Below are positions 11,195 through 52,111 of a DNA stretch of 64,000 nucleotides, piece by piece. A program made the position numbers and the translations under genes. A model generated the notes under the pieces. It saw only the letters and a list, made by a program, of their open reading frames with translations. It ran no database searches and had not been told where the DNA came from. Origin of the DNA: a plasmid. The number at the start of each line of letters is the position of its first letter. Position 1 is the first letter of the stretch. The stretch lies in sequence record NZ_CP047975.1; one strand, written 5' to 3'.

Positions 11195-11440
11195 AGAGGT
11201 AATAACACTAAATATAAAAAAATTGGAAGAATAATTTATTAAATTATTGTTTTTATGTGGTTATTGGTGATGTTATGAATAATAATAACTTTTTTCTTGA
11301 TGAATTTTACCTAAAAAAATTGATCAGATAATTTTCTTTAAATGTCATGCATACATAAATTTGACAGTTTGAAGGGATCGGTATGTGCATTTTTCACAAG
11401 GTTAAAGATCGACCATAAATGTGATAAACGGCAGAGGATC
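11195..11440 (+). repeat. Copy B of the approximately 260-bp direct repeat flanking hipBA
   Basis: See copy A. Confidence 0.6.
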
Positions 11441-12882: not shown

Positions 12883-13050
12883 CTAAGTTTCGGGTTGCGA
12901 ATACTTCTTATATTTTTGCAAGATTTCAGCTTTACTTTGTTGAGTTGTTTGAGCTGTCGTTGTAATGCCTTCAAGCTTTAGGCTGGCTTGATAGTTTTGC
13001 GCACGTGTCGCTTGAATATATTTTTTTTTCTGTTCAGTGGTTCTGAGCAT
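12883..13050 (-). CDS. yhfG: YhfG-like small protein (55 aa), a putative Fic antitoxin partner. It is absent from the ORF track because it is under 60 aa
   Basis: My translation of the minus strand is MLRTTEQKKKYIQATRAQNYQASLKLEGITTTAQTTQQSKAEILQKYKKYSQPET. It resembles E. coli YhfG (the ...QASRRLEGV... region). It sits 12 bp upstream of fic in the same orientation. Confidence 0.55.
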   Translation of the reverse strand: MLRTTEQKKKYIQATRAQNYQASLKLEGITTTAQTTQQSKAEILQKYKKYSQPET

Positions 13051-13324
13051 TTCGAAACTCCATTGATGCTACACGTGAAGTAAGTATAGCAGAGAATCTT
13101 TTTGATCAATGCTGCATACACAGCATTTCAAAATGTAATACAACGGTATTGTTTCATGTAATAACAGAAAACTAAAAAAAAGTGGAAGAATTTTTAAAAT
13201 TTAGACCACCCATGATAAGTAAACCATATGTATTTGTTGATAATTGTAATTTTGAGAAAATTTAGTTGATAAATTAAATGAATTTTAATATACAAAGATA
13301 TGCTCATTTTTTATATCGATAAAA

Positions 13325-13789
13325 ATGTTAAAATTTGACTATTTAGTAAAAAATATAGAGATATTTATGGGGCAATTTATCATGCCCTTTTGCTTTGATC
13401 GGCCAGATATTCAGATTGAGATGGTGAAAATCAATTCAGAATTATTGAAAATCAAAAAGATTAAACAGAGTCAGAAAGTCGTAGTACAAGCAAAGTTCAA
13501 AGTAATCTACGTCAAAATTTGGCAAAAAATTTTGCTATTGATGCAAACGGAGCGAGGATTACGTGTGCATTCTAATTATGTTGCAATCATACAGTTGATA
13601 CAAAATCTGGATTATTTTATCGAAAAATCACAGCAACATTCATGCTTTGAGAGAAAAGCCCAAAAAGAGTTAGATGCAAAATTTTTTGCTCGATTTTTTA
13701 AGCTGACAAAAAATTCAATAAAAGATCAACTCATACCAAATTGTGCGGATTTAAATGAATTTTACACATACAACTCGATAAAAATTTAA
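13325..13789 (+). CDS. Hypothetical protein (154 aa) abutting the start of the 783-aa gene
   Basis: The ORF ends 1 bp before the 13790 start. It is AT-rich with no recognisable motifs. Confidence 0.35.
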   Translation: MLKFDYLVKNIEIFMGQFIMPFCFDRPDIQIEMVKINSELLKIKKIKQSQKVVVQAKFKVIYVKIWQKILLLMQTERGLRVHSNYVAIIQLIQNLDYFIEKSQQHSCFERKAQKELDAKFFARFFKLTKNSIKDQLIPNCADLNEFYTYNSIKI

Positions 13790-16141
13790 TTGAAAATGAA
13801 TATGCAAATGACTGAACGAGAAAAGCGATTTTTAGAGTTAGCAGAAGAATTTCAACAAGATTATTGTCTGCTACGTGATGAAGTTGTGAATACACAATTT
13901 CTCGATCTATCAGATGATTTGTATGAAAAAGTTCATGCGCTATATGAGAAGGCGCAACAGATATACGGCTATATATCTAGTACGAGGCAAATTGGTAATT
14001 ATTATTTGCTAGCTTGTTTAAGTTATTTTGCATCTCCTGATACTAGTAATACGCAAAATTTAACGTCTCAACGTTATCTGATTCTGCAAGCAAGTTTTTT
14101 AACTTATCGACATTACCAAGATTTTTCAAAAATTCCTAAAGGTGAGAATAAGAAAAAACAGGTCTGTGATCTCTTGCGTTATGTATCACGATATGTGCTG
14201 CATTCTAGTAATGCTGAATTATTTGAAGAATGCAGTAAGCTATTAAATCGTTATGTCATGTACGAACGTAGCTTGAAAAACGAGGATCGTAATCAACTTT
14301 TTAATATTAATGATTTTCAAGAAATAAAAGTAATTGAATATTTATCGGCACTATTGATCATATTTATACGACTAGATGATCGTAGTGTTGTTCATCGTCA
14401 ACGTAAGTCAAAAGAACGGAAAGCTTTACAATGGCCAACTAAAAACGAAGTCAGAATATTTCGTGAAATAAAATCAGGTAAGCAAGAAGATGTCGGATAT
14501 AACGCAAAAATCAGTTTTCATGATGCCTCTCTTCACAAAGATGAAGATGGTGAAATTGAGCTTGCAGACGCTGAAGTAGAGTTATATTCAGAAGATGAAA
14601 AGACTAAACAATTTAATCATATAATTAGTGATTATGTTGCGCATTACACGCGTCATCGCCAACGCCGGCATGCTCCATTTATTACAAATCCTCATTATTT
14701 AGCGCCGGACGTACTGAAGCAAGTTGTATATGTACTAAGAGCCGAATTATTTGGAAACTGGAAAGATGCTGCAATAGCTGCTGCATGTTTATTATCACTG
14801 TTGACAGGATTATCACCCGTTGCACTGATGAATTTTAACGAGCTTATTCAAGATGGAATTTTGATCCAGAATGGTTCAAGTAGACGTCGCGAATATTTAC
14901 TCAAATTAAATCTTAAAATTACAGAGCAGAAGATTAAGAGCTTAAATCATGTGCGATGGAATGAAGAGATGTCGCATCAACTACATCTACCTGCGGCATG
15001 GTTTGACTACATCGAGCAAGGAGATAATCCATCTATATCTTCAGCTTATATTAATACCAAGCTTAAGAAATGGCTTGATAATCAGTTTGTAGGTTCGATC
15101 ACCGTTGAAAAACTTCAAGCACAATTATATTTTCATATATGTTATGAAACATTTAATGAATATCTTGCACATGTGATCGCGGGCCGGGATAGTCAGCATC
15201 ATATGCCCGGTATTTTTTATGGCGGGCTTCCAAAGGCTCAACTGGATACTACATATCTTTGCTATTTAGAAACAGTGCTTACACCGCATTCTGCTCAATT
15301 TGATGAAGACACAGCAGAACTTAATATATTGCAACAAAAATTTAAAATTAGATCTGCTTTATCTATAGGTCGGATAGGGAGCCAACTTGCACTTGCACCA
15401 AATTTCGTACAAGAGCAATTTAATTACTTACATAAGCACTGTGAAGAGAATATTCAAAAACATAAACATATCATTAATCAACTGAATGCATATGCCTGCT
15501 GGATGTGGCATGTTAGTTTGTTGTGTTTAACAAATCGACCTAAAGAAAGTCTGTTGGGTCAATTGGATGATTACTGTTTTGAACTCAAGCTTTTATATGT
15601 GAATGATAAGAAAAATAGTAAGGCAAGAAAGGATGGTCGCTTTATCCCATTATCTGATTTTTTCATCAAAGCATTGCAAAATTACACTACTTTTTTAGAA
15701 CAAATTATTGAAGCATACGGTTTATTTTTTAGACAAGTCTTTGTAAAGAAGAAAATTACTATAAATGATCTTTTTGGAATGGTCCTAGTTAGTAACGAGA
15801 GCCTTCCGATGACTGTCAAAGAGTGGCAGAGTAAAAAAATTAAGTTAATCCCGTTATCAAGGAGCTGGGTAAATGCCTATATGCGAGAGATTTTTCCCAG
15901 AAATATGTATTCAAATTGGTTACGCCATTTTGATATGAATTTTTTGATGCATGAGCAGCAAGAGGGTAAACCAGCATTAGCTTTTCACTTAATTCAGGCC
16001 CTGTATGGTCATGACCAACGTGACCGAGAGGCTTTTCATCCGCATTCTTCACTTATCCCGAATGTCTATGTACAGCAAGCCCGCCAGCAATTGCAAGATA
16101 ATGTCAAATCTTTATCGATTAAACACTTAGAGCGAAAATAG
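13790..16141 (+). CDS. Large protein (783 aa) with a divergent, probably catalytically degenerate tyrosine-recombinase-like C-terminal region
   Basis: Box I-like LLTGLSPVALMNF, with S replacing the conserved R. K-hairpin-like RKDGRFIPLSDFF. Box II-like NWLRHFDMNFLMH and LYGHDQRDREAFHPH. Confidence 0.75.
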   Translation: MKMNMQMTEREKRFLELAEEFQQDYCLLRDEVVNTQFLDLSDDLYEKVHALYEKAQQIYGYISSTRQIGNYYLLACLSYFASPDTSNTQNLTSQRYLILQASFLTYRHYQDFSKIPKGENKKKQVCDLLRYVSRYVLHSSNAELFEECSKLLNRYVMYERSLKNEDRNQLFNINDFQEIKVIEYLSALLIIFIRLDDRSVVHRQRKSKERKALQWPTKNEVRIFREIKSGKQEDVGYNAKISFHDASLHKDEDGEIELADAEVELYSEDEKTKQFNHIISDYVAHYTRHRQRRHAPFITNPHYLAPDVLKQVVYVLRAELFGNWKDAAIAAACLLSLLTGLSPVALMNFNELIQDGILIQNGSSRRREYLLKLNLKITEQKIKSLNHVRWNEEMSHQLHLPAAWFDYIEQGDNPSISSAYINTKLKKWLDNQFVGSITVEKLQAQLYFHICYETFNEYLAHVIAGRDSQHHMPGIFYGGLPKAQLDTTYLCYLETVLTPHSAQFDEDTAELNILQQKFKIRSALSIGRIGSQLALAPNFVQEQFNYLHKHCEENIQKHKHIINQLNAYACWMWHVSLLCLTNRPKESLLGQLDDYCFELKLLYVNDKKNSKARKDGRFIPLSDFFIKALQNYTTFLEQIIEAYGLFFRQVFVKKKITINDLFGMVLVSNESLPMTVKEWQSKKIKLIPLSRSWVNAYMREIFPRNMYSNWLRHFDMNFLMHEQQEGKPALAFHLIQALYGHDQRDREAFHPHSSLIPNVYVQQARQQLQDNVKSLSIKHLERK

Positions 16142-16145
16142 TTGT

Positions 16146-19100
16146 ATGCAAAAAATCAAAGAACTAATAAAACCACAACTAGATGATCTATTTGTTGATA
16201 TTCATAAAATGGTGAAAAAGTCGCTAGATAGACAGCCTTCTCCACCTGAAGTATTGACGAAAGAAATGCAGCAAAAACTTGATCAGCAGATCGCTGAAAA
16301 ATGGCATGACATTAAAGATAGTGTTGATTGTTTGAGTCAAAAGTTGAGCCGAGACGAACAATCAAAACTGATGCAATTTACTGAAGATGAATTTAATAAA
16401 AGAAGGAAGCAATTCAACCAGAATGTAGATAAAAAATCATACAGAATTAAGCTAAATCCACATACTAAACGGATCGTACTGCCTAGAAAAATTGAGAGTA
16501 CAGAGTCACGGTTAGAACAGGGGCATCTACATATCCATGTACTTAAGGAATTAAGGCAGTATTGGCAAGATTCATTTGAATATTGGAATGAACCAAAGTA
16601 CTTATGGGGAAATTTATGCTTAAGTTTTATATATATTTCAGGCTGTGCAGATGAACAGCATTTGATTGCTATTCAGAAGCAATTGCAGGAGGCCATTGAG
16701 CTTGGTACAGATCTGAATTGTTTTCGGTTATACCATTCGGACTACAAAAAAATCACTAATCCATTGTTACTACATTATCGTGTTGAAAACTCTCAATATG
16801 GCAACGATGTAGAACAGGGAAAGTTGTACCAATGGAAACATGTTTTTTTTAACCCATATGCGCAGTTCATTTTGCAATATTTAAAAAAGTTGAAAGCTAC
16901 TCAGAAAGAATTTTGTCTGCAACATTCAGTTGAAGATTGTATTTTAGAAAGCTTGAGTAAGATAGGCAGGAAAAAAAGTCTTGGGGATCTGCAATATCAA
17001 ATTAAACGCCGTGGATTTCGTGCATTTAATGATGTGCAAATGGTACTCGAATTTAATCCAAACCTCAGCATAGATATATTTTTGAGTAATGTGCTTCAGC
17101 AAGAGATTAATACTGTTGCTTTAAGGCCATCCGAATTTAGATTGCTGTGGAATAATGATTACAATCAAGTCACAGAACCAGATAATCGCCCTATTCATTT
17201 TGAACAAGAGCAGTTACTTCCTGAAGTTCCGACTGTTCAAAGCAAATTACAAACGATTCCGTATGAGTTGATGTTGTTTGGTCAAAAGAAACGTAAAGGT
17301 CAAAAAGTTGAGCGTTTAGATAAAAAGAGGAATAAAGAAGAACGCACGCTACGTTTTTGGCAAGAAACTAGAAGGGTGTTAGAGGAGAAGATAGTTGATG
17401 CTAATACGGAGGAAAAGTCTTTAATTGATGCTCAACTACGCTTAATTCACTGGTTAATGCATTTAAAAAAACGAGGGCTTCAATTATCAACTATTGAAAG
17501 CTACTTAGGATCGTTTGGCAAAGAATTTATATTTGAGATTTGGCTCAATAAATTAGATTTAAAGCAACAATCCATAGATGACTATGAGGATTTATATCGG
17601 CAGCTATTGAAATACAGCAGTGAACGTGATGAAAAAGCAGTTCAACGAGATTCGGTGAAAGGAAAAACCTCTCGTAAGATGCACCAAAGCGCAGAATACC
17701 GTTTTGGTCGCCTAAAAGATTTTCATCAATTCTGTATAGAGAATTATGATGCTCCAGGGGTATTGGTGTTACAGAATTCAAGTTTTAAGCATTTACAAAT
17801 TTGCAATGCACGGCTAGTGAGTCCTTTGCTATTTGGCAAATTATTGGAAAAACTAGAAAATTTAAGTCAAGAGCCAACGGCATCAGAGTGGGTCGATCAT
17901 CTGAGTTGTTTAAAGCTGATGTATTTACTAAGTTATAGAACTGGACTTCGATTAAATGAAGTTCGTTGTCTTAAAATACAAGATATTATTTGCCCAGAGC
18001 TACTTTATAAAGAAAAAGAAAATACAGTTTTTAATAATATCACGCTTCATATCCAAGACAATTCATATCGCCGTCTGAAAACGCGAAGTGCGAATCGTCA
18101 AATACCATTGAAAATTGCATTGTCAGAACATGAGTTTTTAGTAGTACAACGTTACATACAACATCGTTATGAGCAATATTTGGTTAATCAGCAGGATGAT
18201 CAACTTTTTAGTGTGAATCATCGTGTATTAACTGATCAATGTATCAGCAAAATTACAGTAGATTTGTTTAGTCAAATATTAGGTATGCATCATGGCTTTA
18301 GTTTTCATACATTACGCCACAGTGCTGCTAACTATCTAGCAATAACTTTGCTCGGTTCAAAAGAAATGATCAAGACCTACACAGATTGTCCTTGGGTAAA
18401 AGCAAAAAAGATGAGGGATTTATTGTTTGGTATGAAAGCACGTGCTCAAGAAGAGATTATTCAACATAAATGGCAGGTGCTCGCCTCTTGGATGGGGCAT
18501 AGCAGTATTGAGCAAACGGCTTCAAATTACCTTCATGTTTTGGATTTATTAGCAGTCGATCGAATTTATAATTCGCCGTGTATCATTTCAAAAAAAGTAT
18601 TAGAACAGTGTTTTGGTCCAGTGAAGTCAAGTACAGAGTACATAAACTTAAATCGTTATACTCAGCAGCAGAAATGGTTTGATTCTTATCATCAGCAAAC
18701 ACAGCCATTCACAATGGTTGGCCAACAAGAGAAGAAGTTTAGTATCGAGAATAGTACTCTGACACCTTATCAACGTTTGATAAATTTTAGAGATGCCCGT
18801 AGCAAAGATCCCCAAGCTCAAGTATGGCTGCAGCGATGTCAATTGATGTGCACTAAATGGATGAGCCCCCAAAAATTTAACTTAAAAGTTGAAAATATTG
18901 AGGGAGAGATTATAGATGAAGGTTGGTTTGAGGATCTTCACAATAAAGCCAGGAAATTGTCTCGTTCTAATGAACGCAATACCTTCCTTGATTTGTACGA
19001 TCAAGAAGAGAATAGGCCTGACATATATCAAAGAAAGAACAAGATTGATGCTCTAAAAATATTATTACACTTTGGTAAGTTACGTAAGAATTTTTTGCAT

Positions 19101-19340
19101 TTTGTATGTCGAGATCAAGACGATGAGCAACGAATTAGAAGTTTTATTGCTGGAATGAAGCCAATATTAGGAGAAGAGCTAAATTTAGGTATACAAAATT
19201 ATCCAGTTAATATGAATGCACCTGAGCGAAGAGTTCAATTCAGTTTTCAAAGAATAGACTCTAATAAAAATGTGACAGTTCTGGTTTTATTTAATCTAAT
19301 GTTAAAAATCATGCAGGAAGATGAGCTTTGGATTAAATAG
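16146..19340 (+). CDS. Large protein (1064 aa) with an embedded intact tyrosine-recombinase (phage-integrase-type) catalytic domain at about residues 590-800
   Basis: Box I LSYRTGLRLNEV. K-hairpin LKTRSANRQIPL. Box II FHTLRHSAANYL. WMGHSSIEQTASNYLHV gives the His and the catalytic Tyr. There are a 580-aa N-terminal and a 260-aa C-terminal region of unknown function. Confidence 0.85.
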   Translation: MQKIKELIKPQLDDLFVDIHKMVKKSLDRQPSPPEVLTKEMQQKLDQQIAEKWHDIKDSVDCLSQKLSRDEQSKLMQFTEDEFNKRRKQFNQNVDKKSYRIKLNPHTKRIVLPRKIESTESRLEQGHLHIHVLKELRQYWQDSFEYWNEPKYLWGNLCLSFIYISGCADEQHLIAIQKQLQEAIELGTDLNCFRLYHSDYKKITNPLLLHYRVENSQYGNDVEQGKLYQWKHVFFNPYAQFILQYLKKLKATQKEFCLQHSVEDCILESLSKIGRKKSLGDLQYQIKRRGFRAFNDVQMVLEFNPNLSIDIFLSNVLQQEINTVALRPSEFRLLWNNDYNQVTEPDNRPIHFEQEQLLPEVPTVQSKLQTIPYELMLFGQKKRKGQKVERLDKKRNKEERTLRFWQETRRVLEEKIVDANTEEKSLIDAQLRLIHWLMHLKKRGLQLSTIESYLGSFGKEFIFEIWLNKLDLKQQSIDDYEDLYRQLLKYSSERDEKAVQRDSVKGKTSRKMHQSAEYRFGRLKDFHQFCIENYDAPGVLVLQNSSFKHLQICNARLVSPLLFGKLLEKLENLSQEPTASEWVDHLSCLKLMYLLSYRTGLRLNEVRCLKIQDIICPELLYKEKENTVFNNITLHIQDNSYRRLKTRSANRQIPLKIALSEHEFLVVQRYIQHRYEQYLVNQQDDQLFSVNHRVLTDQCISKITVDLFSQILGMHHGFSFHTLRHSAANYLAITLLGSKEMIKTYTDCPWVKAKKMRDLLFGMKARAQEEIIQHKWQVLASWMGHSSIEQTASNYLHVLDLLAVDRIYNSPCIISKKVLEQCFGPVKSSTEYINLNRYTQQQKWFDSYHQQTQPFTMVGQQEKKFSIENSTLTPYQRLINFRDARSKDPQAQVWLQRCQLMCTKWMSPQKFNLKVENIEGEIIDEGWFEDLHNKARKLSRSNERNTFLDLYDQEENRPDIYQRKNKIDALKILLHFGKLRKNFLHFVCRDQDDEQRIRSFIAGMKPILGEELNLGIQNYPVNMNAPERRVQFSFQRIDSNKNVTVLVLFNLMLKIMQEDELWIK

Positions 19341-19818
19341 CCTAAGCTAACTAAAAGGTATTGTTTAAAAATTTCTTTGGTCATAAGTAAACGGCTTTTT
19401 TGCTCAAGCCTATACCTTAAGTCTACCGTACAACGAATTGGTGCTCTTACAATAAATCCTTGATCAATCGAGGAAACATATCGATAGGGTAAGCTCAACC
19501 ACAAGATAAACAGGGATCAAATTAAGCTTATTCTGAGGCAGCTTGGGCAAATTTAATCTTCAAATCTTTGGGCAACAAAGCCGAGCGTTACCGAAATCGA
19601 GGTAAAAGACTGCGTATGGGATTTCTTTTAATTGTTGGAATTTACAATATAGAATTGAGAAAGAAATGATTTGTGTAAGAGAACTATTGTTATTCGTATA
19701 ATTTTAAAACAAGATATCAACTATTTAAAATTGTGATTTTAGCATTTTAAGCATGCCATTAATTCGGTTTGATTAAATTGCAAAGGGGATAATAATGCTA
19801 GAAGATGAAAATAAGAGG

Positions 19819-21124
19819 GTGTAAATAATTCTGTGTAAATACAGTTTTAAAAATACTTGGTTACACGCTCTTCAAACATGATACTAAAGCGGTTCATAGC
19901 AGATTTCCAATTTTGGATAGGCATTGTCCATTTTTTGCTTGCTGCCATAATCGCTAAATATACCACTTTTTTCACTGAATCATCAGTCGGGAAGATTTTT
20001 CTTTTCTTGGTCGCATGACGGATCACGCTGTTCAATGATTCAATCGCATTCGTTGTGTAGATTGCTTTACGAATATCCATAGGATAAGCAAAGAACGTGT
20101 TGAGATTCGGCCAATGCCCGAGCCATGATTTGCTGATTTGAGGGTATTTGTCATCCCATTTCTGACCAAATTCATCAAGAGCGTGTAAGGCTTCATCTTC
20201 GGTTACCGACTGGTAGATTTTCTTCAAATCAGATGTAACGGCCTTATAATCTTTCCAACTGACATACTTCAAGCTATTGCGTACCATATGGATAATACAC
20301 AACTGGATATGGGTATCAGGATAGACCGTATTAATCGCATCAGGAAAGCCTTTTAATCCATCCACACATGCAATCAGAATATCTTGCAAGCCACGATTCT
20401 TCAGTTCGGTGAGAACTGATAACCAGAACTTCGCCCCTTCGTTTTCAGCCATCCACAGTCCAAGTAAGTCTTTCTGCCCCTCTGTATTGACACCCAAAGC
20501 AAGAAATACAGCCTTGTTGATGACGGTGTTGTTATGTCGCACCTTCACGACAATACAGTCTAGGTAAACGATTGGATAGAATGCATCCAAAGGGCGGTTT
20601 TGCCATTGAGTGACTTGGTCGATCACAGCATCTGTCACCTTGGAAATTAAGGTAGCAGAGACATCTGCATCGTACATTTCCTTGAACGTGGCAACGATAT
20701 CTCGTGTCGTCATGCCTTTAGCATAAAGGGATAGAATTTGACTATCCATTTGCGTGATTCGAGTTTGACTTTTCTTGATGAACTGAGGCTCAAATGTACC
20801 ATCACGATCTCTAGGCGTGTCTAGCTCAAACTCACCATCATCAGTCAGTAGGCGTTTAGTTGTATAGCCATTACGAGCATTTTTACCTACTCTAGGACTA
20901 TGCTTCTCATAACCTAAATGGTCAGTGAGTTCAGCATTTAGAATAGTTTCCACCGTTAATTTCTTTAGAGCTTTACTGAAATTATTCAGGTCAGCTTCTG
21001 TCTTTAAGTTCTTGGCAAATTCTTTGGCTAATGCCAGCATTGCTTCATCTTTCATGGTAAACACCTGTGTTGCCCCTAACAGCGTTGAGGGATAGTCTAA
21101 GCGTTTACACAGTTTTATTTACAG
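19819..21124 (-). mobile_element. IS256-family insertion sequence, about 1.3 kb, inserted between the recombinase-like genes and the large helicase gene
   Basis: The 405-aa mutator-type transposase lies inside. Imperfect terminal repeats gtaaataattctgtgtaaatac / gtaaataaaactgtgtaaacgc. No 8-bp target duplication is visible. Confidence 0.8.
19847..21064 (-). CDS. IS256-family (mutator-type) transposase
   Basis: 405 aa with the typical IS256 transposase organisation (…DGLKGF…YPDTHIQLCIIHMVRNSL…). Confidence 0.9.
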   Translation of the reverse strand: MFTMKDEAMLALAKEFAKNLKTEADLNNFSKALKKLTVETILNAELTDHLGYEKHSPRVGKNARNGYTTKRLLTDDGEFELDTPRDRDGTFEPQFIKKSQTRITQMDSQILSLYAKGMTTRDIVATFKEMYDADVSATLISKVTDAVIDQVTQWQNRPLDAFYPIVYLDCIVVKVRHNNTVINKAVFLALGVNTEGQKDLLGLWMAENEGAKFWLSVLTELKNRGLQDILIACVDGLKGFPDAINTVYPDTHIQLCIIHMVRNSLKYVSWKDYKAVTSDLKKIYQSVTEDEALHALDEFGQKWDDKYPQISKSWLGHWPNLNTFFAYPMDIRKAIYTTNAIESLNSVIRHATKKRKIFPTDDSVKKVVYLAIMAASKKWTMPIQNWKSAMNRFSIMFEERVTKYF

Positions 21125-21161
21125 TCTCGAAAATAACCAACAACTTGATCCAAAATATTCA

Positions 21162-24100
21162 TTGCAGGTTGATTGTGCTTCAGCTTTGAATTTTGTTTTA
21201 CAGCAAAATTCAGTTCCTCTGATTCGACAAATCCTAATCTCTTCAACTGAAACGATTTCTGGTTCTCGAATCGTTATTCGTTCTAATCCTGATTATTTCA
21301 AAGAACACACTATCAATATTGCGAACTTGGAAGGCAATCAATTCTTGGCTCTTGATAAGCCAAAATTAGTTTTTGATATCAAACTATTGCAGGAGTTACC
21401 TGAGAATCTTAAAGGCAGTATTGAAATCCTTTGGTTGAATGAAAAGGAAGAGATACTGGCAGAGCAGCGGGCAGAGATTGATTTATTAACCATTGATACT
21501 TGGGGTGGGGAACGCCAACCCATAGAATTATTGGCGAGTTTTTCACAACCCAATGCTTCAGCACTCAGCCCAATTTTGGTTAAGGCCAGTGAAATTTTAA
21601 AAGCAAAAGAACTAGGTTCATTAAGTGGTTATCAAGAGCGAGATAGAGATTCTGTGCTATCTCAACTGAATGCCTTATGGGAGTCTTTATTACAACAAGA
21701 TATTCATTATATTGTTAACCCAGCAAGCTTTGTTAAATCGGGCCAAAGAATACGTTTGGCAAAGCAGATTTTTGACGAGAAGTTAGCATGTTGTTTAGAC
21801 ACGACAATACTTTTAAGTGCCTTGGCTGAACAAATAGGCTTAGATACTTTACTTATTTTTGAAGAAGGACATTCGTATCTTGGGGTTTGGTTAAATGAGA
21901 CGCCAAATGTTGACTTGATCATTGATGATATTCAAGCATTAAGAAAGCGTTATGATTTGGGTGAAGTTGTTTTTATAGAAACAACGCTGCTCACACAACA
22001 AGTAAAGTTTGCATCCGCACTTGAAACAGCAAAACAGTACATTAAAGATGAATCCCGCCAGCATAAGTTCTATCTTGCGATTGATGTTCGCCAGTCCCGG
22101 TTGCGTGGCATTAAACCAATTTCCTCATATCAGGATAAGAAAAATCATCTGGATGAAACAGAAATTGAATGGGCGCCTGCATCTATTCCTGTATATGATG
22201 TTGAACGTCCTGTAGAAAGTAAAGCCACGCGGGTTGACCGCTGGTTGCGCCGTTTGCTTGATCTAAGTCTCCGTAACAAGCTCTTAAACTTTAAGGACAA
22301 TCGTTACAGCATACCCTTACAATGTTCTGAGTTAACACTGGGGAAACTTGAAGATGCATTGGCGAACCAAGAGGGTTTCTTATTTAAGGGGATTGATAGC
22401 ATCTCGCTAAAAGATGTCCAGCGTGACAATGAAAGCCAACATATCAATCAATATGTTGATGATAGCCTGTCCAGAAAACTATTGTTTAGTCCACTTGATA
22501 CACCCTTACTGGAAAAGCGCCTAATTGAGGTTTACCGTGCCTCACGTACTGCTTTAGAAGAGGGAGGAGCGAATACACTATTTCTTGCTATTGGCTTTCT
22601 GGAATGGAAAGAGTCAGAGCGTTCAAAACGCACTTTTAAAGCGCCACTACTACTTATTCCTGTGCAGATCACCCGCGAGACCGCTAAAACAGGTTATCGC
22701 CTGTATATGTATGATGATGAGCCTCGCTTTAATTCAACTTTATTACAATTATTAAGACAGGATTTTGAACTAGATATTTCGGGTTTAAACCCTTTGCCGG
22801 CAGATGATTCTGGGATAGATGTTAACCAAGTCTTACATATTGTGCGTAAGGCTATTGTGAATATACCAGGATGGGAAGTTAAAGCTGAGGCTGCCATTGG
22901 TCAGTTCTCATTTTCAAAATATTTAATGTGGCTTGATTTGTCTACACGAATGGATCAACTTAAAAATCAATCTGTAGTAAATCATCTGATTGAATCACCA
23001 CGAGAACCATTCATTAAACAGGATGATTTTCCGCAACCCGCTCAACTAGACCAACGATATCAACCTCAACAATTTTTTACACCGTTATCATCTGACTCGT
23101 CACAGTTAGCAGCAGTTATGTCCGCCGCATTAGGACGTACTTTTGTACTTTCTGGCCCTCCTGGGACAGGTAAGTCCCAGACCATTACAAATATGATTTC
23201 ACAGTGTCTAGCAGATGGTAAATCTGTGTTGTTCGTTTCTGAAAAGATGGCAGCTTTAGAGGTTGTCTATCGTCGTTTGACACAGATTGGCTTGAGTGAG
23301 TTGTGCTTGCAGTTACATTCTTCCAAAGCGCAGAAAATGCAGGTTTTGGATCAACTGCGGGAAAGAGCACAGAAGAACAATGACCCATATTTTCTAAGTG
23401 CTCAGCTAAAGACAACAGAATGGCAAAAGTTGTCGGACAAATTAATCCAGTCTCGTGATGAACTGAATCAGCATGTAAATAATCTCCATACCGTACATGC
23501 GATCGGTTGGAGTCTGTATGCCGCAATGAGTGATGAACTTTGTTATCGGGATACACCACATCTACGTTTTCCTGAGATTGAAATTTCAACACTAACATCA
23601 GAAAAGCGTGAGTTGCTGAATAAGACGGTGACACAAGCAGTAAGCTTGCGTCAGCTAGTAAATGAAAATGCTAAAGACGTATTGGATGGATTTGCGGAGG
23701 GCTTGTCCGAACCTATCTGGAATCTGGCATGGCAGGAGCAATATCAACTATTACAGGACCAACTTGTAGGTCAGATACAACAATTACAAAAGTCTATTTC
23801 TGCTTGGCAACAGGTTTTTGGATTCAGTGAAAAGCAGAATCTGAGTCAGGTTAATCAGGATGTTGCGATTTTTAAAGCAATATCTAATCTGGTTCAGCAA
23901 ACAGACTTAAAACTCTTAAATGCGATTAAAGATATCGATTTAAAAACCATTACCCAGACAAAACACTTAACGCAAGATCTTAAGCAACAGCGTTCTTCAT
24001 TAGTAGGGAAATACCAATCTCAAATTTATCAAGCAGATTTAAGTCAAATTGGCTTTAAATGGCGTGAAGCAGAATCAAAAATGTTCCCATTTTCATGGTT

Positions 24101-26273
24101 TGCTAAATTCCAGCTGAGAAACTTAGTCAAAACTTATCAAGACTCAACTCAACGCCCAACAGCTTTGGCAGTTGCCCATGACTTACCAATCTTGCAGCAT
24201 ATCCAAAGCCAACAATTACAATTTACTGAATGTGAAAAACTGTTAGCGAGTAAGCTTGGTTCTTATTGGCAGGGTGAAGATAGCGCATGGCAAAGTTTTG
24301 AAGCTATTCACAATCAGTGGCAAGAAATTAAGCAGATAGTTGCGTTGTCAATTACTGATCAAGCAACTTTATTAAAAGCTGTAGAGTTTAGTAAAAATCA
24401 TACTTTGGATGAGCTGACACAGAATATCGCTCAGGTGGAGAATACGTTTAGGCAATTGCTGAATGATCATGTCCTGAAGAGTGATACTGCGATTACCTCA
24501 TATTCAGATATTGATTTTAATAAAATTATCGAAAGACAACAGCAGTTGCAGCAACACAGTTCATCTTGGAGACATTGGTTAAATTGGCAGGCTATAAAGA
24601 GCCAGTTGATTCAACATGGGTTAAAACCATTGGCATTTGAGCTTTTGAATGCCCCATTGAATGTGGATGATGCCCTAAAACGCCTGAATATTAATTTAGC
24701 GAGACACTGGATTACGCATCAATTTAGTCAGCATCCAGAGTTAAACCAATTTAACAGCCAACAACATGAACAGAAAATAATGTCCTTTGCCCAGCAGGAT
24801 AAAGAACACCAACTTTCTGCAAGTCAGGAAATTATTCACCGTTGGAATAATATTTTTATAGAACAAAACCACTACAAAGGGCAATGGACTGTTCTTAACA
24901 AAGAGTTGGGTAAGAAACGCCGTCATATTCCTGTACGAGAGTTGATGCGTCAAATTCCTGATGTTTTAGTTGGCTTGAAACCATGTTTATTAATGAGTCC
25001 ATTATCAGTTGCCCAATATCTGGACACAGAAGCAAAATTTGATGTAGTAATTTTTGATGAAGCATCACAGATTCCTGTATGGGATGCAATTGGTGCATTA
25101 GCGAGAGGTAAACAGTCAATCGTGGTGGGTGACAATAAACAAATGCCACCAACCAGTTTCTTCGGTAAAGGCGATTCTGAAGAAGAGGTTGATGAGGAGG
25201 TGACTGAAGATCTGGAGAGTATTTTGGATGAATGTCTTGCTGCTCAGTTACCAGAATTAGCTTTGAATTGGCATTACCGTAGTCGTTATGAAAGTCTCAT
25301 TCAATTTAGTAATCAGAAATACTACAAAGGTGGTTTATTTACTTTCCCTGCACCTGTTGCTAAGGATACAGCTGTAAAACTACATGTGGTTGAGGGTGTA
25401 TACGACAAAGGTGATACACGTACCAATAGTAATGAAGCAAAGGCAATTGTTGAATTTATTATTCAGCATTTACAGTCACAGTTAGGGCAAGAGAATCCTT
25501 TGACTTTAGGTGTGGTCACTTTCAATATGACTCAGCAGAAGTTGATTGAAGATTTGCTGGATAATGAATTGGCTAATCACCCTGAGTTAGAGACATTGAG
25601 TAAGTCAGGCATTGAACCTTTATTTGTTAAGAATTTAGAAAATGTGCAAGGAGATGAACGTGATATTATCGTTTTCTCAATTACTTACGCAGAAGACCGT
25701 GATGGTCGATTATCTATGAACTTTGGCGCGCTTAATCGTCAAGGTGGTCAGCGCCGTCTAAATGTAGCAATTACTCGCGCTCGTCAAGGATTACATGTTT
25801 TCTCTGCTTTGAGTCCTGAAGAAATTAATTTGGCACGCACTAATAGTGAGGGTGTAAGGGATTTAAAAGACTTCTTAGTTTTTGCTCGTAGTGGTCAGTT
25901 GCATTTAAATTATGCTGACCAAAGTAAACAGCAGGCTAAAAAAGAATTCCTACAGTACCTACAAACTAAGTTGCAAGAACAAGGCTGGAGTGTGGACCTT
26001 GGTATAGGTCAGGGAGATAGTTGTGTAGATATAGCAATTAAGGATAATTTGAATTCAGGTAGTTATCTTGCAGGTATTATAGTAGATGGTGAAAACTACG
26101 CTAAAGCAGCTACAGCAAGAGACCGTGATCAGCTCAGACCAACAGTATTAAATGGGTTAGGCTGGCAGGTATTATCAGTGTGGACAGTTGATTGGTGGCT
26201 GGATCCAGAGCAGAACTTAGCTAAATTGGTAAAAGAATTGGATGAGATCAAAATTAATCAACAGGTTGCTTAA
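21162..26273 (+). CDS. Multidomain protein of 1703 aa, TTG start at 21162. N-terminal transglutaminase-like Cys-peptidase-like region, then a DUF4011-like region, an SF1 (UPF1/DNA2-like) helicase core, a DUF3320-like region, and a C-terminal VSR/DUF559-like PD-(D/E)xK endonuclease domain
   Basis: CCLDTTILLSALAEQIGLD…GHSYLGVW is transglutaminase-like. RLLDLSLRNKLLNF is the DUF4011 hallmark. Walker A LSGPPGTGKSQT. VIFDEASQI is the DEAD-like motif II. VTFNMTQQ, NVQGDERDIIVFS and LNVAITRAR follow. C-terminal GWSVDLGIGQGDSCVDIAI…IIVDGENY…DRDQLRPTVLNGLGWQVL is VSR-like. Confidence 0.85.
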   Translation: MQVDCASALNFVLQQNSVPLIRQILISSTETISGSRIVIRSNPDYFKEHTINIANLEGNQFLALDKPKLVFDIKLLQELPENLKGSIEILWLNEKEEILAEQRAEIDLLTIDTWGGERQPIELLASFSQPNASALSPILVKASEILKAKELGSLSGYQERDRDSVLSQLNALWESLLQQDIHYIVNPASFVKSGQRIRLAKQIFDEKLACCLDTTILLSALAEQIGLDTLLIFEEGHSYLGVWLNETPNVDLIIDDIQALRKRYDLGEVVFIETTLLTQQVKFASALETAKQYIKDESRQHKFYLAIDVRQSRLRGIKPISSYQDKKNHLDETEIEWAPASIPVYDVERPVESKATRVDRWLRRLLDLSLRNKLLNFKDNRYSIPLQCSELTLGKLEDALANQEGFLFKGIDSISLKDVQRDNESQHINQYVDDSLSRKLLFSPLDTPLLEKRLIEVYRASRTALEEGGANTLFLAIGFLEWKESERSKRTFKAPLLLIPVQITRETAKTGYRLYMYDDEPRFNSTLLQLLRQDFELDISGLNPLPADDSGIDVNQVLHIVRKAIVNIPGWEVKAEAAIGQFSFSKYLMWLDLSTRMDQLKNQSVVNHLIESPREPFIKQDDFPQPAQLDQRYQPQQFFTPLSSDSSQLAAVMSAALGRTFVLSGPPGTGKSQTITNMISQCLADGKSVLFVSEKMAALEVVYRRLTQIGLSELCLQLHSSKAQKMQVLDQLRERAQKNNDPYFLSAQLKTTEWQKLSDKLIQSRDELNQHVNNLHTVHAIGWSLYAAMSDELCYRDTPHLRFPEIEISTLTSEKRELLNKTVTQAVSLRQLVNENAKDVLDGFAEGLSEPIWNLAWQEQYQLLQDQLVGQIQQLQKSISAWQQVFGFSEKQNLSQVNQDVAIFKAISNLVQQTDLKLLNAIKDIDLKTITQTKHLTQDLKQQRSSLVGKYQSQIYQADLSQIGFKWREAESKMFPFSWFAKFQLRNLVKTYQDSTQRPTALAVAHDLPILQHIQSQQLQFTECEKLLASKLGSYWQGEDSAWQSFEAIHNQWQEIKQIVALSITDQATLLKAVEFSKNHTLDELTQNIAQVENTFRQLLNDHVLKSDTAITSYSDIDFNKIIERQQQLQQHSSSWRHWLNWQAIKSQLIQHGLKPLAFELLNAPLNVDDALKRLNINLARHWITHQFSQHPELNQFNSQQHEQKIMSFAQQDKEHQLSASQEIIHRWNNIFIEQNHYKGQWTVLNKELGKKRRHIPVRELMRQIPDVLVGLKPCLLMSPLSVAQYLDTEAKFDVVIFDEASQIPVWDAIGALARGKQSIVVGDNKQMPPTSFFGKGDSEEEVDEEVTEDLESILDECLAAQLPELALNWHYRSRYESLIQFSNQKYYKGGLFTFPAPVAKDTAVKLHVVEGVYDKGDTRTNSNEAKAIVEFIIQHLQSQLGQENPLTLGVVTFNMTQQKLIEDLLDNELANHPELETLSKSGIEPLFVKNLENVQGDERDIIVFSITYAEDRDGRLSMNFGALNRQGGQRRLNVAITRARQGLHVFSALSPEEINLARTNSEGVRDLKDFLVFARSGQLHLNYADQSKQQAKKEFLQYLQTKLQEQGWSVDLGIGQGDSCVDIAIKDNLNSGSYLAGIIVDGENYAKAATARDRDQLRPTVLNGLGWQVLSVWTVDWWLDPEQNLAKLVKELDEIKINQQVA

Positions 26274-26446
26274 ATTGTCTGAAACCTTAGGGATGAAAAG
26301 CATGCTTTAAATCAACTCATTGACTTGGGTTGCATGGTCCATGCGAGTCGTAAATTCTATGAACTATATGTGACGGGGAAAAGTCAGATCAATGAACAGG
26401 CATTTTTAAGGGTCATCAGATTAAGTGCATTTTGATAATGAATAAA

Positions 26447-26467
26447 GCGCCGTTTGGCGCTTTATTC
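26447..26467 (+). terminator. Perfect GC hairpin (agcgcc gttt ggcgct) followed by ttattc. A terminator-like structure at the AT-to-GC junction
   Basis: Direct reading. Confidence 0.5.
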
Positions 26468-26680
26468 ATCCTAGGGACCGCTCACCACCGAGTCCGAGAA
26501 GAGCGAGCAAAAAGGCTTTGCCAACCTGCTGATCGGCCTGTTCGGCGCCGTGCGCAATCCGCTGACTCATGCGCCCAAGGCGAATTAGCCCATGTCCGAA
26601 CAGGATTCACTGGACATCCTGACGCTGGTATCGCTGATTCACCGCAAGCTGGATGGCACCACGAAATTAGCGGCCGTATC
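26466..26680 (+). pseudogene. Truncated, frameshifted C-terminal fragment of an Abi_C-domain (abortive-infection C-terminal) protein. It marks the left edge of the GC-rich island
   Basis: Frame translation is ...SEQKGFANLLIGLFGAVRNPLTHAPKAN*, containing the Abi_C-type RNxxxH motif. It continues in another frame as EQDSLDILTLVSLIHRKLDG. No N-terminal part is present. Confidence 0.45.
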
Positions 26681-26700
26681 GCCATAAGGGAAAGACAAGA

Positions 26701-27468
26701 ATGGACGAGGCGATCGTAGTCTTCTCTCGGAAAGGGATTTTCCAGACTACGATTGCCGCGCGTGACGTTCGCAGCCGGGAACATGCACGCAAGCTGTGGC
26801 CCCTGGTGTCTCCCGGCGCATCACGGCAGATGGTGACATGGGTCAGCCCCTCCTTTGAGAGCGGGAAGTTGCGTCGGAGATCCCACTTCCGCGTGCTTCC
26901 TGCCCAACACACCTTTAATCCGAAAGCGCACTTCGACGATGAAGAAGCCAGCCGGTGGCGCGCTGTGCAGGAAAGCCCCGAACACCGACAGGCGAAAGAA
27001 CTTGTCGCTGCCGAACTCTCCCGACGCTTGAATGCCGGGCTTGCGATGCCGTGGGCGTTCAAAGATACGGATGCGTCGGACTATGCGCTGGAAGGCAACT
27101 TGTTGCTGGGTGCCGACCGGGTGGCAACCGAGCATCCTCTGGAGACGCCATTCGGCAGCAAATTCCGGCTCGACGTTGCCGTGCTCGGGCCGCCGGTTCA
27201 GGTCGAGCCGATGGTGCTTGGCGGCGTTGAAATCGAACTCAGCCACGCCTTCGACGGCCGCAAGGCGCTGATCGGGAAGTCGCTCGGATTTCCGTTGATC
27301 TCCATCGACATCACGGAGATGATGCTGGACGAACTCACGCCTGAGTGGGCACAGCGGGTACTGACCACAACCACGCGGAGCCACGAGCAAGGACGCCGGC
27401 AGACCTACATCTATCTCCACGACCTGCTGTACCACCTCTACGCGCAATTGCCAACGATGAGACGCTGA
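26701..27468 (+). CDS. Hypothetical protein (255 aa; true start uncertain) at the left end of the GC-rich island
   Basis: Longest coherent ORF among many overlapping high-GC ORFs. No motif recognised. Confidence 0.4.
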   Translation: MDEAIVVFSRKGIFQTTIAARDVRSREHARKLWPLVSPGASRQMVTWVSPSFESGKLRRRSHFRVLPAQHTFNPKAHFDDEEASRWRAVQESPEHRQAKELVAAELSRRLNAGLAMPWAFKDTDASDYALEGNLLLGADRVATEHPLETPFGSKFRLDVAVLGPPVQVEPMVLGGVEIELSHAFDGRKALIGKSLGFPLISIDITEMMLDELTPEWAQRVLTTTTRSHEQGRRQTYIYLHDLLYHLYAQLPTMRR

Positions 27469-27913
27469 ACAAGCTGGTGCGCTGGATGAACCTGCTCGCG
27501 GAGAAGCTAGAGTACCCGAAGGGTACGGTCGCCGTTGCCTTGGTCAATGGAAAGAACTAACAGTCGCGCAAGATGCTGGAACGCGCGGGACAAGTCGTTG
27601 GCCCCGACTGGAGTGAATTCAATGACCAGCGCTGCTTAGGGCTGACCTTGCCGCGCCCCAAAGGCCCAGCCGATCTCCAAGCCCATCGCTTCCACATGAC
27701 GATGGCGCGCATCCTGCTGTCGCACACTGATGCGCACGTTAGCTACAAATACTGCAACTGCGTGGACAACAACCACCCCGAAGAAGACGTGTGGGTGGCG
27801 CATCGCTGGATTGCCGACCTGAAAACCCATACCCGGCACCGCGTATTGCCGGAGTCACCTTGCGGGCAAACACTACAACGGAGCCAGGCGCCTGTTTGCT
27901 TGTTGGACAGTTC

Positions 27914-28702
27914 TCAGTCCGTCGTCGGTTTTGGTGCTCTTTTCCGCGGAGCCGAAGAAGGCAAAGACGGCAAGCACTCGAATAGGCGTTCTGCATAGAC
28001 GAACCCCATCCGCCTGACTGCGCTCTGATCGAAATACAGTAGCCAAGCGGCCAGTAACGCCAGCGAAATGAGCAGCGTTAGGCCAGCAGCCAGCCCCGGA
28101 TCAGCAAAATGCACAGGGTCAAAATGTGGAGGCGCAACCTGCAAGATTTTTGCAATCAGCAATCCATAAAGGATACCCAAGAGGCACGACAAAATGCCAA
28201 CAGGTTTCATCGCTAACATATTGCGATGGAATCCGTATGCAATATTCTCTTTGAGTAGGAGCTGCTTGTTGGAACGGGTGAGTTCACGAAGTCGCTTGGT
28301 TGCCCCAATGTAGGTATCGTCCGCCTTGTCCTGATCTGCTGATTCCTCCTCTGCGTTCGGCATGGCAATACCCAGCTTAGCTGTAATCGCGGTGTGATAT
28401 CGCTGCTTGCTGACGCTATCCAGAAATTTGTCGCGATGGCGCAGGGCTATGGTTGTTGGCATTCCGCCCCATTTTTTCACTAGGGATTCTTCCAACTTTT
28501 TTCCCCGCCCACGGGCTACGCTTGCGAGTGCATAAATGGCACCGCAGCCACCCAGCAGTCCAATCACGCCTGTAAGTACCGGGTGCTTTGCGCCGTAGAC
28601 ACACAACAAGGGAACGAGCAGCGGCAAAGCTACAAGAAGTCCTGGAATTACGCGCGCCTTGCGCTCGTAGGGGTCTTTGACCAGTTCAAAAATATTCGTC
28701 AT
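27914..28702 (-). CDS. Predicted integral membrane protein (262 aa; two N-terminal and two C-terminal hydrophobic helices) co-oriented downstream of the WYL regulator gene
   Basis: Hydrophobic stretches VIPGLLVALPLLVPLLCVYG, VLTGVIGLLGGCGAIYALA, VGILSCLLGILYGLLIAKIL and LAAGLTLLISLALLAAWLLYF. Confidence 0.6.
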   Translation of the reverse strand: MTNIFELVKDPYERKARVIPGLLVALPLLVPLLCVYGAKHPVLTGVIGLLGGCGAIYALASVARGRGKKLEESLVKKWGGMPTTIALRHRDKFLDSVSKQRYHTAITAKLGIAMPNAEEESADQDKADDTYIGATKRLRELTRSNKQLLLKENIAYGFHRNMLAMKPVGILSCLLGILYGLLIAKILQVAPPHFDPVHFADPGLAAGLTLLISLALLAAWLLYFDQSAVRRMGFVYAERLFECLPSLPSSAPRKRAPKPTTD

Positions 28703-28708
28703 AGGTGC

Positions 28709-29611
28709 TTAGCTTTGGGCCGACAAGGCATCAATATAGGGTTGAATTTCATCGCGGTTTTTCAAAGTGATCTGCTGCGCGAGGGGGTCGGGTGCTTCCT
28801 TGGTATGCAAGCCCAAACGCCTCAGTGTGTAGTACAGAAACGCTTGGCGGCATGGAAGTTTGACCTGTCCACCCTCCATTCCATAGTCCAACTCCAGGAC
28901 TCGTTTCTTGGCAGCGGGTAAATCGGGATGCGGTGCAAGCACCAGCGTCAATACAGTTTGCCAATGCGAATCCTGGCTGGCGTCCACTTGGCTCGCCTCG
29001 AAGCCATCGATGCGCAGGATTCGGGCGAGGACGAAATCGCTGAAGCGCTGGCGCTTATGGCAAAACGCGCGCATGTGCCAGCGAAAACCGTCGTTGCCCA
29101 GAGCGTGCGGCGACAGCAGACGAACCGATTCGTCCAAGGACGTCATGGACTGGTAGCTCACCCAAATGGCTTCCTGCTGCCGAATTGCCCGGACCACTGC
29201 TTCGACGGTTTGTTCATTGATGGTGCGCCAAGGGGACGGTGCCCAATCTGCCTCAGGCGCTGAGCCAATAAAGCTGGACGCTGGTTCGATGACGCCCATC
29301 TTGGTGGCCAGCAGCTCCGCTAGATAGTGTTGCACCGAACTTCGCTGGTAAAGCGGGTGAAAACTCGGTGCTGCCGTGTAAGTCTTGGAACTGCGGTCAT
29401 AAATCAGGTTGTTCGGCGCTAACTCCGTGTACTTGGCAATGTCCAGTGAGGCCTGGGGAATCGATATGCCGAAGTGCTCGGTGAGATCCATTCGATTGAT
29501 GCGCCGCTCCCAGCGCAAACGGAAATCGATGAATTGAAGTCTGCTCTCTAACCCCCAGCTTAGCCCTTTGGGCTCAGCGGGATCGGCGGCAGTTACAGGA
29601 GGCTCTTGCAT
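28709..29611 (-). CDS. WYL-domain transcriptional regulator (N-terminal wHTH plus WYL-like domain)
   Basis: N-terminal RLQFIDFRLRWERRINRMDLTEHFGISIPQASLDI is HTH-like. Central LLSPHALGNDGFRWHMRAFCHKRQRFSDFVLARI is WYL-like. Confidence 0.65.
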   Translation of the reverse strand: MQEPPVTAADPAEPKGLSWGLESRLQFIDFRLRWERRINRMDLTEHFGISIPQASLDIAKYTELAPNNLIYDRSSKTYTAAPSFHPLYQRSSVQHYLAELLATKMGVIEPASSFIGSAPEADWAPSPWRTINEQTVEAVVRAIRQQEAIWVSYQSMTSLDESVRLLSPHALGNDGFRWHMRAFCHKRQRFSDFVLARILRIDGFEASQVDASQDSHWQTVLTLVLAPHPDLPAAKKRVLELDYGMEGGQVKLPCRQAFLYYTLRRLGLHTKEAPDPLAQQITLKNRDEIQPYIDALSAQS

Positions 29612-29700
29612 TATTTGCGCCTAATAAGTAGACGGATATAAAAAATAGTCGTACATTAACTATACGCGATCATCCTTCGGTCGTCTACCCGGAGACCTCA

Positions 29701-33146: not shown

Positions 33147-33191
33147 GGGTAAAGCCACCAGCACTTTATTGGCATAAAACAAGAGGGATGT

Positions 33192-34262: not shown

Positions 34263-34266
34263 GTCT

Positions 34267-52083: not shown

Positions 52084-52111
52084 TTTCGTATAACAGCCAT
52101 TATGTTAAATT
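52084..52111. other. pdif site: gtttcgtataa-cagcca-ttatgttaaat
   Basis: XerC-spacer-XerD 11-6-11. Confidence 0.75.

Follow-up and report, generated by a model that had tools for sequence, protein, structure and literature searches.

Two very large genes whose products resemble tyrosine recombinases, followed by a third encoding a helicase-nuclease, lie between positions 13325 and 26273 of a 64,000-nucleotide stretch of the plasmid record NZ_CP047975.1 (the window), and the question that this locus raises is whether the three belong together and what they might do. A first-pass annotation, made from the letters alone, had read them as one uncharacterised three-gene cluster, probably with a role in defence or conflict and split by an IS256-family insertion sequence (IS). 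The open reading frames (ORFs) of 783 (gene 1), 1064 (gene 2) and 1703 amino acids (aa) on which it relied are all present, as is the minus-strand IS256-family transposase gene. We find, however, that the region is made of two independent entities: the helicase-nuclease gene, which encodes ProA and needs no partner genes, and a trio composed of gene 1, gene 2 and a fourth ORF of 154 aa (13325-13789) that had been overlooked and that belongs with them. The explanation that fits best as a whole is that ProA stands alone and that the trio is a self-contained three-gene site-specific recombination module working at a 32-bp motif, a reading that we hold at about even confidence.

The identity of the 1703-aa ORF (21162-26273, plus strand) is settled at the level of family models. 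It matches the NCBIfam model NF058533, 'anti-phage protein ProA', over residues 10-1700 with 1782.1 bits (curated cut-off 1500), and the PADLOC model PDC-S37, a single-gene candidate system, with 1145 bits; the gene, part of a combination that had been said to match no described defence system, is an already-named single-gene anti-phage protein. Pfam recognises in it DUF4011, an SF1 helicase (AAA_11/AAA_12) and the C-terminal nuclease REase_MTES_1575, which is of the PD-(D/E)xK type; the helicase part is UPF1/DNA2-like, with IGHMBP2, Upf1, Sen1 and Dna2 as relatives in the PDB. Three of the five regions proposed earlier stand on this evidence, whereas the transglutaminase-like and DUF3320-like regions were not detected by Pfam even at E≤10, and ProA relatives of ∼36% identity nonetheless carry the annotation 'DUF3320 domain-containing protein'. 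Hhe, listed as related to ProA and PDC-S37, was rejected as an identity for the ORF, as the match reached 776 bits against an NCBIfam cut-off of 2000 and was confined to residues 1026-1700 (the C-terminal 40%). No paper describing ProA was found in the literature searched, its mechanism being read from domain content only, and protection against phage is predicted from the family model.

Comparison with related plasmids revealed that the window copy of ProA is interrupted. Over positions 13000-26500, the window has 100% identity to two plasmids of Acinetobacter baumannii (NZ_CP065052, p5637, and NZ_KT852971) and, the IS left aside, 96-100% identity to six more, including the GR13-type plasmid pDETAB5. 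Base by base, the window equals pDETAB5 as far as 19814 and then from 21129 onwards, with the 8 bp GAAAATAA on both sides (19807-19814 and 21129-21136), and from this comparison the IS occupies 19815-21128 on the minus strand, with a normal 8-bp target duplication, within codon 7 of ProA. It had been placed at 19819-21124, in the gap between the genes and with no visible 8-bp duplication, where it might have uncoupled the helicase gene from an operon; instead, it broke into ProA itself, whose native ATG is at 19795. A 5′ stub with this ATG and codons 1-7 is left at 19795-19814, and the body, from codon 5 to the stop (assigned by NF058533, PDC-S37 and Pfam), runs from 21129 to 26273. The ends of the element, read by eye, form inverted repeats over ∼21 of 26 terminal bases, and its transposase ORF (19847-21064, minus strand) matches Transposase_mut with 391 bits. 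ProA free of the IS, found in six plasmids, is 1718 aa long and begins 455 bp past gene 2 in pDETAB5. Beyond the IS, the first canonical in-frame start is a TTG at 21162 (codon 16) without an obvious ribosome-binding site, and a search of the right end of the IS gave no promoter-like site. The insertion separates the ProA ORF from its own start codon, ribosome-binding site and promoter, and to judge from the sequence the window copy is probably not expressed, or gives at most a protein truncated at its N terminus. In the RefSeq annotation of an IS-bearing plasmid (locus L002, 13965), the DUF4011/ProA gene is started at an ATT within the right end of the IS (window 21117), which yields 1718 aa, the same length as the intact gene, and so hides the interruption; this start looks like a homology-driven artefact. 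The helicase-nuclease gene is therefore best labelled ProA and marked as interrupted, not called from an ATT inside the IS.

If the recombinase genes and ProA made up one new defence or conflict system that the IS had split, they should be found together. They are indeed adjacent and on the same strand here and in ∼10 close plasmids, short 3′ remnants of ProA occur downstream of trios of another class (L034 and L039), and toxin-antitoxin and defence genes abound nearby. However, by tblastn gene 1 occurs in 254 plasmid records, all from Acinetobacter, and gene 2 in 260, as opposed to only 14 Acinetobacter plasmid records for ProA, and full-length ProA was found in none of 53 species-level loci (one genome per species, each encoding a gene 1 relative). 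Conversely, ProA-like proteins are widespread in genera from which gene 1 was not recovered; full-length ProA homologues of ∼36% identity reside on plasmids of Klebsiella, Raoultella, Rhizobium, Mesorhizobium and others, and gene 1 was not found in Klebsiella, Raoultella or Rhizobium. In many plasmids the match to the window stops at about 19400 and is followed not by ProA but by umuDC, which comes after gene 2 in most plasmids. The ProA 3′ remnants, seen beside higBA in three loci, look like deletion debris; moreover, ProA is modelled as a single-gene system, and neither gene 1 nor gene 2 has a match in the PADLOC library. We therefore consider a three-gene defence system highly improbable. 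Homologous loci free of the IS, which the first-pass annotation had recommended seeking, do exist (pDETAB5 and others), but the three genes are not conserved together.

What is conserved is the trio, and its character as a unit is well supported. In the window, the small ORF is followed on the plus strand by gene 1 (13790-16141; the PGAP start, an ATG at 13802, gives 779 aa) and gene 2 (16146-19340). A gene 2 relative lies directly after gene 1, on the same strand, in 52 of the 53 species-level loci, and the remaining locus ends at a contig end. Relatives of the 154-aa ORF were detected by tblastn upstream of gene 1 in the closer classes (gene 1 identity of at least 40%), and the most distant Acinetobacter class has an ORF of similar size in its place (152, 774 and 1174 aa for the three genes of L049), so that directly in front of gene 1 every class examined has either a homologue of the small ORF or an ORF comparable to it in length (150-240 aa). 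When 1.84 billion representative proteins were searched with a profile, 208 clusters of gene 1 relatives came up, mostly of 700-850 aa. In all five distant two-gene relatives located on contigs the order is kept; four of these contigs have a small ORF of 164-236 aa, then one of 740-859 aa and then one of 1040-1248 aa, and the fifth begins too near gene 1 for a small ORF to show. Rep3 neighbours the trio in one distant case and ParA in another, and a Vibrio cyclitrophicus plasmid carries a trio of 197, 743 and 995 aa, annotated as hypothetical protein, 'integrase' and 'tyrosine-type recombinase/integrase'. Thus, the order of the trio is held from 100% down to ∼15% identity, across Acinetobacter, Vibrio and metagenomes.

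A natural fusion of the two large proteins gives additional support. In the 1924-aa protein P0304, residues 317-805 correspond to the gene 1 family (hhalign probability 99.9%) and residues 905-1612 to the gene 2 family, including the non-catalytic N-terminal part of the latter (98.6%). Strict linkage across such divergence, together with this fusion, speaks for joint action of the proteins of genes 1 and 2. As no sequence similarity between them was detected by BLASTP or by profile-profile comparison, the pair is not the product of a recent duplication. A phage origin of the trio was rejected, because only one IMG/VR contig bears it. In p3ABAYE, the reference GR13 plasmid (L065, 30900-34100), gene 2 is split into ORFs of 135 and 914 aa with gene 1 and the small ORF intact, which means either that the trio is dispensable for the maintenance of this plasmid or that the record holds a sequencing error. 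Moran et al. (2022) name 'tyr13' as a core recombinase gene of GR13 plasmids, giving no coordinates (PMC9455709); because p3ABAYE has a split gene 2 and an intact ∼400-aa arm-type integrase, tyr13 may be the latter rather than gene 2.

By both sequence and structure modelling, gene 2 is a complete tyrosine recombinase. Its product matches Pfam Phage_integrase (PF00589) with 31.4 bits, above the gathering cut-off of 27.1, and over residues 382-799 a large PHROG integrase family (5e-17). The R-K-H-R-H/W-Y set is complete: R602, K645, H721, R724, H725, H785 and Y795 are invariant among 14 homologues down to 35% identity, and the full catalytic set proposed for gene 2 in the first-pass annotation is upheld residue by residue. 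In Foldseek searches with the structure model (pLDDT 65), XerH, Cre and XerA ranked at the top with probability 1.0, Tn1549 Int was also recovered, and the matches span the core-binding and catalytic domains. Outside them, ∼390 residues at the N terminus and ∼250 at the C terminus belong to no recognisable family.

Gene 1 is the less conventional partner. It has no match in Pfam, NCBIfam, PADLOC or PHROG, and direct searches of PDB sequences with the protein of either gene 1 or gene 2 gave none. An alignment of 69 family members (14-44% identity) nevertheless contains eight invariant residues (Y477, G530, R583, K607, R617, R712, H713 and H741), whose order and spacing (…TG.R…DK…R.IPL…NW.RH…GH…) are those of the box I Arg, the hairpin Lys, the box II Arg-His and the last His. 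The best PDB match of the family profile is XerA-like (E=0.036), placing NW.RH on H.LRH and GH on LGH, and gene 1 has the same catalytic-domain fold as gene 2. From the sequence, then, the Arg, Lys, Arg-His and His positions appear to be kept and the canonical Tyr to be lost; the catalytic role of each single residue is one that we infer from these alignments. No conserved Tyr follows H741 among the 69 members, and gene 1 lacks a conserved Tyr nucleophile 9-11 residues past the last His: position 752 is Tyr in 24 members, Phe in 20 and His in 6, as well as in the window protein. The pairing of an active with a degenerate recombinase, as first proposed, agrees with this picture. The degeneracy had been located elsewhere, in a Ser replacing the box I Arg, but R583 of 'LTNRP' is invariant in all 69 members, and the 'TGLS' motif at 340-343 (S342), ∼240 residues upstream of it, seems to lie in a second, degenerate copy of the domain. 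When residues 296-535 of the family were aligned with residues 536-783 by hhalign (E=4e-4, probability 34%), TGLS was paired with TNR and the invariant Y477 with position 752. This alignment is suggestive only, and what it suggests is that gene 1 may hold two tandem catalytic-type domains, one of which would keep the Tyr and the other the Arg, Lys and His positions. On a more speculative reading, the active site would be split, with Tyr477 of the duplicated domain completing either the Arg-Lys-Arg-His pocket of the second domain or the partner site of gene 2.

The small protein has no match in PADLOC or PHROG. Its alignment shows a C-terminal pattern typical of a helix-turn-helix, and one relative matches an Xre-like helix-turn-helix model weakly (E=1e-3), so it is possibly DNA-binding.

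Where the trio begins and ends was read from the limits of DNA homology. Among the loci, homology starts at window 13159-13161 and ends ∼20-60 nt past the gene 2 stop (about 19362-19402); from these limits, in more than 50 loci, we delineate a 6.2-kb module at 13160-19362 (plus strand) with the motif, a promoter region, the small ORF, gene 1, gene 2 and ∼22 nt past the stop. Other classes of trio begin to align 47-148 bp before the small ORF, and where the sequences compared are more divergent, homology stops near the end of gene 2. The start at 13159-13161 was seen in many loci with unrelated left flanks, and it coincides with a 32-bp motif (AATAACAGAAAACTAAAAAAAAGTGGAAGAAT, 13160-13191, plus strand) to the left of which plasmids differ exactly from its first base, making it a candidate recombination site. 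The motif can be written as AATAAC-N14-18-TGGAAGAA[AT]. A pattern search found two copies in the window, with none expected by chance, the second (AATAACACTAAATATAAAAAAATTGGAAGAAT, 11201-11232, plus strand) standing at the start of a fic-yhfG toxin-antitoxin module; in related plasmids the motif also heads a hipBA module, always in the same orientation. Across the loci compared there are 72 copies.

These copies adjoin a variety of sequences on one side. The trio-type copy has seven different left flanks by the strict pattern and two more by eye (L015 and L027), the fic-yhfG type eight and the hipBA type seven, and in a second class of trio three left flanks (L032, L033 and L045) stand beside modules that are 99-100% identical. 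Several flanks come from inside the transposase genes of IS elements; the ISAba125-like element of L045 is short of its last ∼208 nt at the motif junction. The hipA gene of pDETAB5 is cut at residue 105, precisely where a motif copy stands; at the point of this cut, p5637 carries a remnant of type I restriction, and at 11201 the window, pDETAB5 and p5637 part from one another. In an A. junii plasmid (L077), a solo 50-nt trio-type site abuts another motif copy. The 230-nt leader that begins with the motif occurs 389 times in 203 plasmids, and nearly all of 40 sampled alignments start at its first base; the yhfG-trio junction has 203 matching records, with alignments starting at 13157-13161 in the sample. 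An exact and recurrent breakpoint with unrelated DNA on one side argues for a site-specific recombination site. Trios with proteins of only 35-43% identity to those of the window (L032, L034, L030 and L036) likewise have the motif upstream, in DNA that can otherwise no longer be aligned, and this persistence beside diverged trios suggests that the trio is the enzyme that acts on it.

Three further features of the flanks were noted. After the motif, hipBA and fic-yhfG modules continue with a common leader of ∼230 nt, which is 72-74% identical between them and has no annotated gene (window 11201-11440 against related loci). In two species (L034, 5826-6039, and L039, 872-1085), the complete trio is preceded, at a distance of 1.4 kb, by a second, solo motif with ∼200 nt of trio-type leader, and such solo copies suggest remnants of repeated events at one place. 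In umuDC-linked plasmids (L003, 15371-15450; L012 and L016), an extra ∼80 nt after the right end of the trio finishes with a degenerate second copy of the gene 2 end and its tail (…TTGGATTAATAAGCGGAAT), and may be left over from a module that occupied this place earlier.

The right-hand side of the module is less clear-cut. A single exact right end was rejected, because breakpoints fall at several positions and many loci run on into the same umuDC flank, and a search of the module ends for terminal direct or inverted repeats gave only short AT-rich matches. Two candidate terminal repeats were discarded: GGTATTGTTT is present at both ends, but in this lineage only, and ATAAGTAAAC recurs, but 55 nt inside the left edge. 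Reconstruction of an empty site for L045 (an IS30-type target) and for L033/L050 did not recover the other half of the target.

Taken together, these observations lead us to the following scheme. The proteins of genes 1 and 2 would work as a physical pair; the complex of the trio would act at the 32-bp motif, with crossover at or beside its first base; the trio module would be moved or rearranged when the motif recombines with partner sites that are only weakly related, and the same reaction would act on the neighbouring motif-headed hipBA and fic-yhfG modules. The direction and outcome of recombination, as well as the parts given to gene 1 and the small protein, are those that we infer from gene content and junctions. 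A recombinase-driven mobile element, which the first-pass annotation had kept as its fallback, proved nearer to the data than a defence system. A stronger version of the scheme would make trio and motif a hitherto undescribed system by which Acinetobacter plasmids move cassettes; Vibrio, Aeromonas and uncultured bacteria would harbour related systems. In this version, a heteromeric giant pair with a small DNA-binding helper would cut at the 5′ edge of the motif, join it to loosely related DNA and relocate the trio and the motif-headed toxin-antitoxin modules, gene 1 contributing a split active site; we put this forward tentatively, as an elaboration that we consider rather unlikely.

Several points weigh against a recombination module of this kind. 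The link between trio and motif is drawn from their association, and the host XerCD or the ∼400-aa arm-type integrase could use the motif instead. The motif has no obvious dyad symmetry, a matching repeat was not found at the right end, and the right-hand breakpoints are scattered over ∼60 nt. No clean pair of filled and empty sites with both target halves was found (the interrupted IS of L045 does not continue on the far side of the module), so that transposition explains the junctions no better than one-sided deletions or fusions do. Two classes of trio (the L041 and L049 types) have other boundary sequences, and 24 of 30 sampled copies stand in one context beside fic-yhfG, like a fixed set of backbone genes. 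As regards gene 1, the internal alignment has a probability of only 34%, and the structure models are moderate (pLDDT about 65), the Y477 loop and residues 713-757 being of low confidence.

Some of these points would suit a trio that is a fixed plasmid-maintenance function, resolving multimers or cointegrates at its own upstream site akin to Cre/loxP of P1 or ResD/rfsF of F, with the varied flanks as occasional by-products at pseudo-sites. The trio is found almost only on plasmids and plasmid-like contigs, with Rep3, ParA and toxin-antitoxin genes as neighbours and with at least two replicon types; it is usually present in a single copy and usually in the same context (24 of 30); like many resolution systems, it has its site immediately in front of the genes; and one-sided junctions suit deletions better than insertions. 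However, these plasmids already bear several pdif sites for the host XerCD (PMC9455709), some plasmids are otherwise maintained in spite of a broken gene 2 (split in p3ABAYE and interrupted by an IS in others), and 99-100% identical modules stand in three left contexts. Furthermore, the motif also heads toxin-antitoxin modules, which have no need of a resolution site, and three proteins totalling 2,000 aa are not obviously required by a resolvase. On balance we judge a resolution function unlikely.

Alternatively, the motif could be the target or end of some other machinery, its place upstream of the trio being coincidental or regulatory (a promoter or operator common to adjacent modules) and the substrate of the trio lying elsewhere; the trio might then be, for instance, an invertase or the integrase of another element. 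In favour of this, the motif is AT-rich, lies in a region that resembles a promoter and heads modules with genes on the opposite strand; two trio classes lack it at their boundary, and dyad symmetry is not visible in it. Yet a promoter would not end homology at one exact base in at least 25 independent flank types, and the motif accompanies the trio across three protein classes at 35-43% identity. In addition, no other recombinase gene consistently adjoins the motif, and pdif-type sites clearly differ from it in sequence and are located elsewhere. Such a separation of motif and trio seems to us likewise unlikely, and we retain the recombination module as the preferred reading.

Among described systems, the closest in kind are the SEs (intA-tfp-intB-srap), the GInts, Tn554 and the RITs (PMC10214605). 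The trio is similar in kind to SE, GInt and Tn554 elements, yet it falls outside the SE group. With the SEs it shares an operon of several proteins of tyrosine-recombinase type at the left end, beside the border; a partner that has the fold without catalytic capacity, Tfp in SEs and GinC in GInts, to which gene 1 would correspond; and a module size of 6.2 kb, compared to 6.35 kb for a cargo-free SE (PMC10214605). It further shares a large catalytic recombinase partner with a small auxiliary protein, gammaproteobacterial hosts and a frequent location on plasmids. As opposed to the four SE genes, however, the trio has three, with the small gene first rather than last and only one complete recombinase, and Tfp is without the Arg-Lys-Arg-His positions that gene 1 keeps. 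The trio proteins showed no similarity to the four proteins of SE-Pda04Ya311 (hhalign probability <2%), no convincing SE-type terminal inverted repeats of 13-19 bp were found at the module, and in the published survey table of SEs the trio-bearing plasmids p3ABAYE and pBJAB0715 are scored 0 (PMC10214605). SE membership was rejected on gene order and number and on the lack of homology to Tfp and Srap.

Tn554 (tnpA, tnpB and tnpC; Staphylococcus and Enterococcus), by its published description, likewise has three recombination genes clustered at one end, among them a large tyrosine recombinase and a small protein, and weak or absent terminal repeats (PMC10214605), but it has two catalytic recombinases (361 and 630 aa), its small gene is last and its hosts are Firmicutes. 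RIT identity, which needs three catalytic recombinases of ordinary size, was rejected for a trio of 154, 783 and 1064 aa with the full catalytic set in gene 2 only. The dif modules of XerC/XerD-pdif are also short, often carry toxin-antitoxin genes and have a short repeated site that recurs in many contexts, on the same plasmids (PMC9455709); however, pdif is unrelated in sequence to the motif, whose copies are all direct and stand as one-sided heads of modules. The trio is not a dif module, as the four pdif sites of the window all lie at 49.8-63.4 kb, with none at the ends of the trio module or anywhere near 13-26 kb. Apparently, trio and motif together represent a widespread, undescribed variant of multi-component tyrosine-recombinase modules.

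Acinetobacter plasmids of the type seen here carry carbapenemase and other resistance genes, and their mosaicism has so far been ascribed to insertion sequences and XerCD/pdif modules. If our reading is right, a second recombination system with its own site would be present on ∼250 sequenced plasmids, shuffling toxin-antitoxin and accessory modules, and it would help to explain how non-conjugative plasmids fuse with others. Mechanistically, the interest lies in the pairing, fused in some lineages, of a complete recombinase with a partner that lacks the nucleophile but keeps most active-site positions, seemingly in two copies of the catalytic domain.

The window has the mosaic base composition expected of plasmids of this type. 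The segment at 26400-35000 has 54-59% G+C in a plasmid of ∼35% G+C and encodes, in the identical plasmids, a WYL-domain protein, a ThiF-family adenylyltransferase (802-aa ORF, 30738-33146), hypothetical proteins and a helix-turn-helix/ImmA-IrrE pair; an arm-type integrase gene lies near 38249-39448, with the high-G+C segment. This segment looks like an integrated foreign island and is possibly a defence system. Two 1.1-kb copies of an IS30-family element, 99.6% identical (53263-54361 and about 62275-63373) and presumably ISAba125-like, enclose a segment of 65-70% G+C in a layout that recalls Tn125-type composite transposons. The pdif (XerC/XerD-type) sites are at 49800-49824, 52084-52108, 52580-52604 and 63405-63429, each with 0-1 mismatch to the consensus, and as these four matches compare with 0.05 expected by chance, the plasmid also bears classical dif modules.

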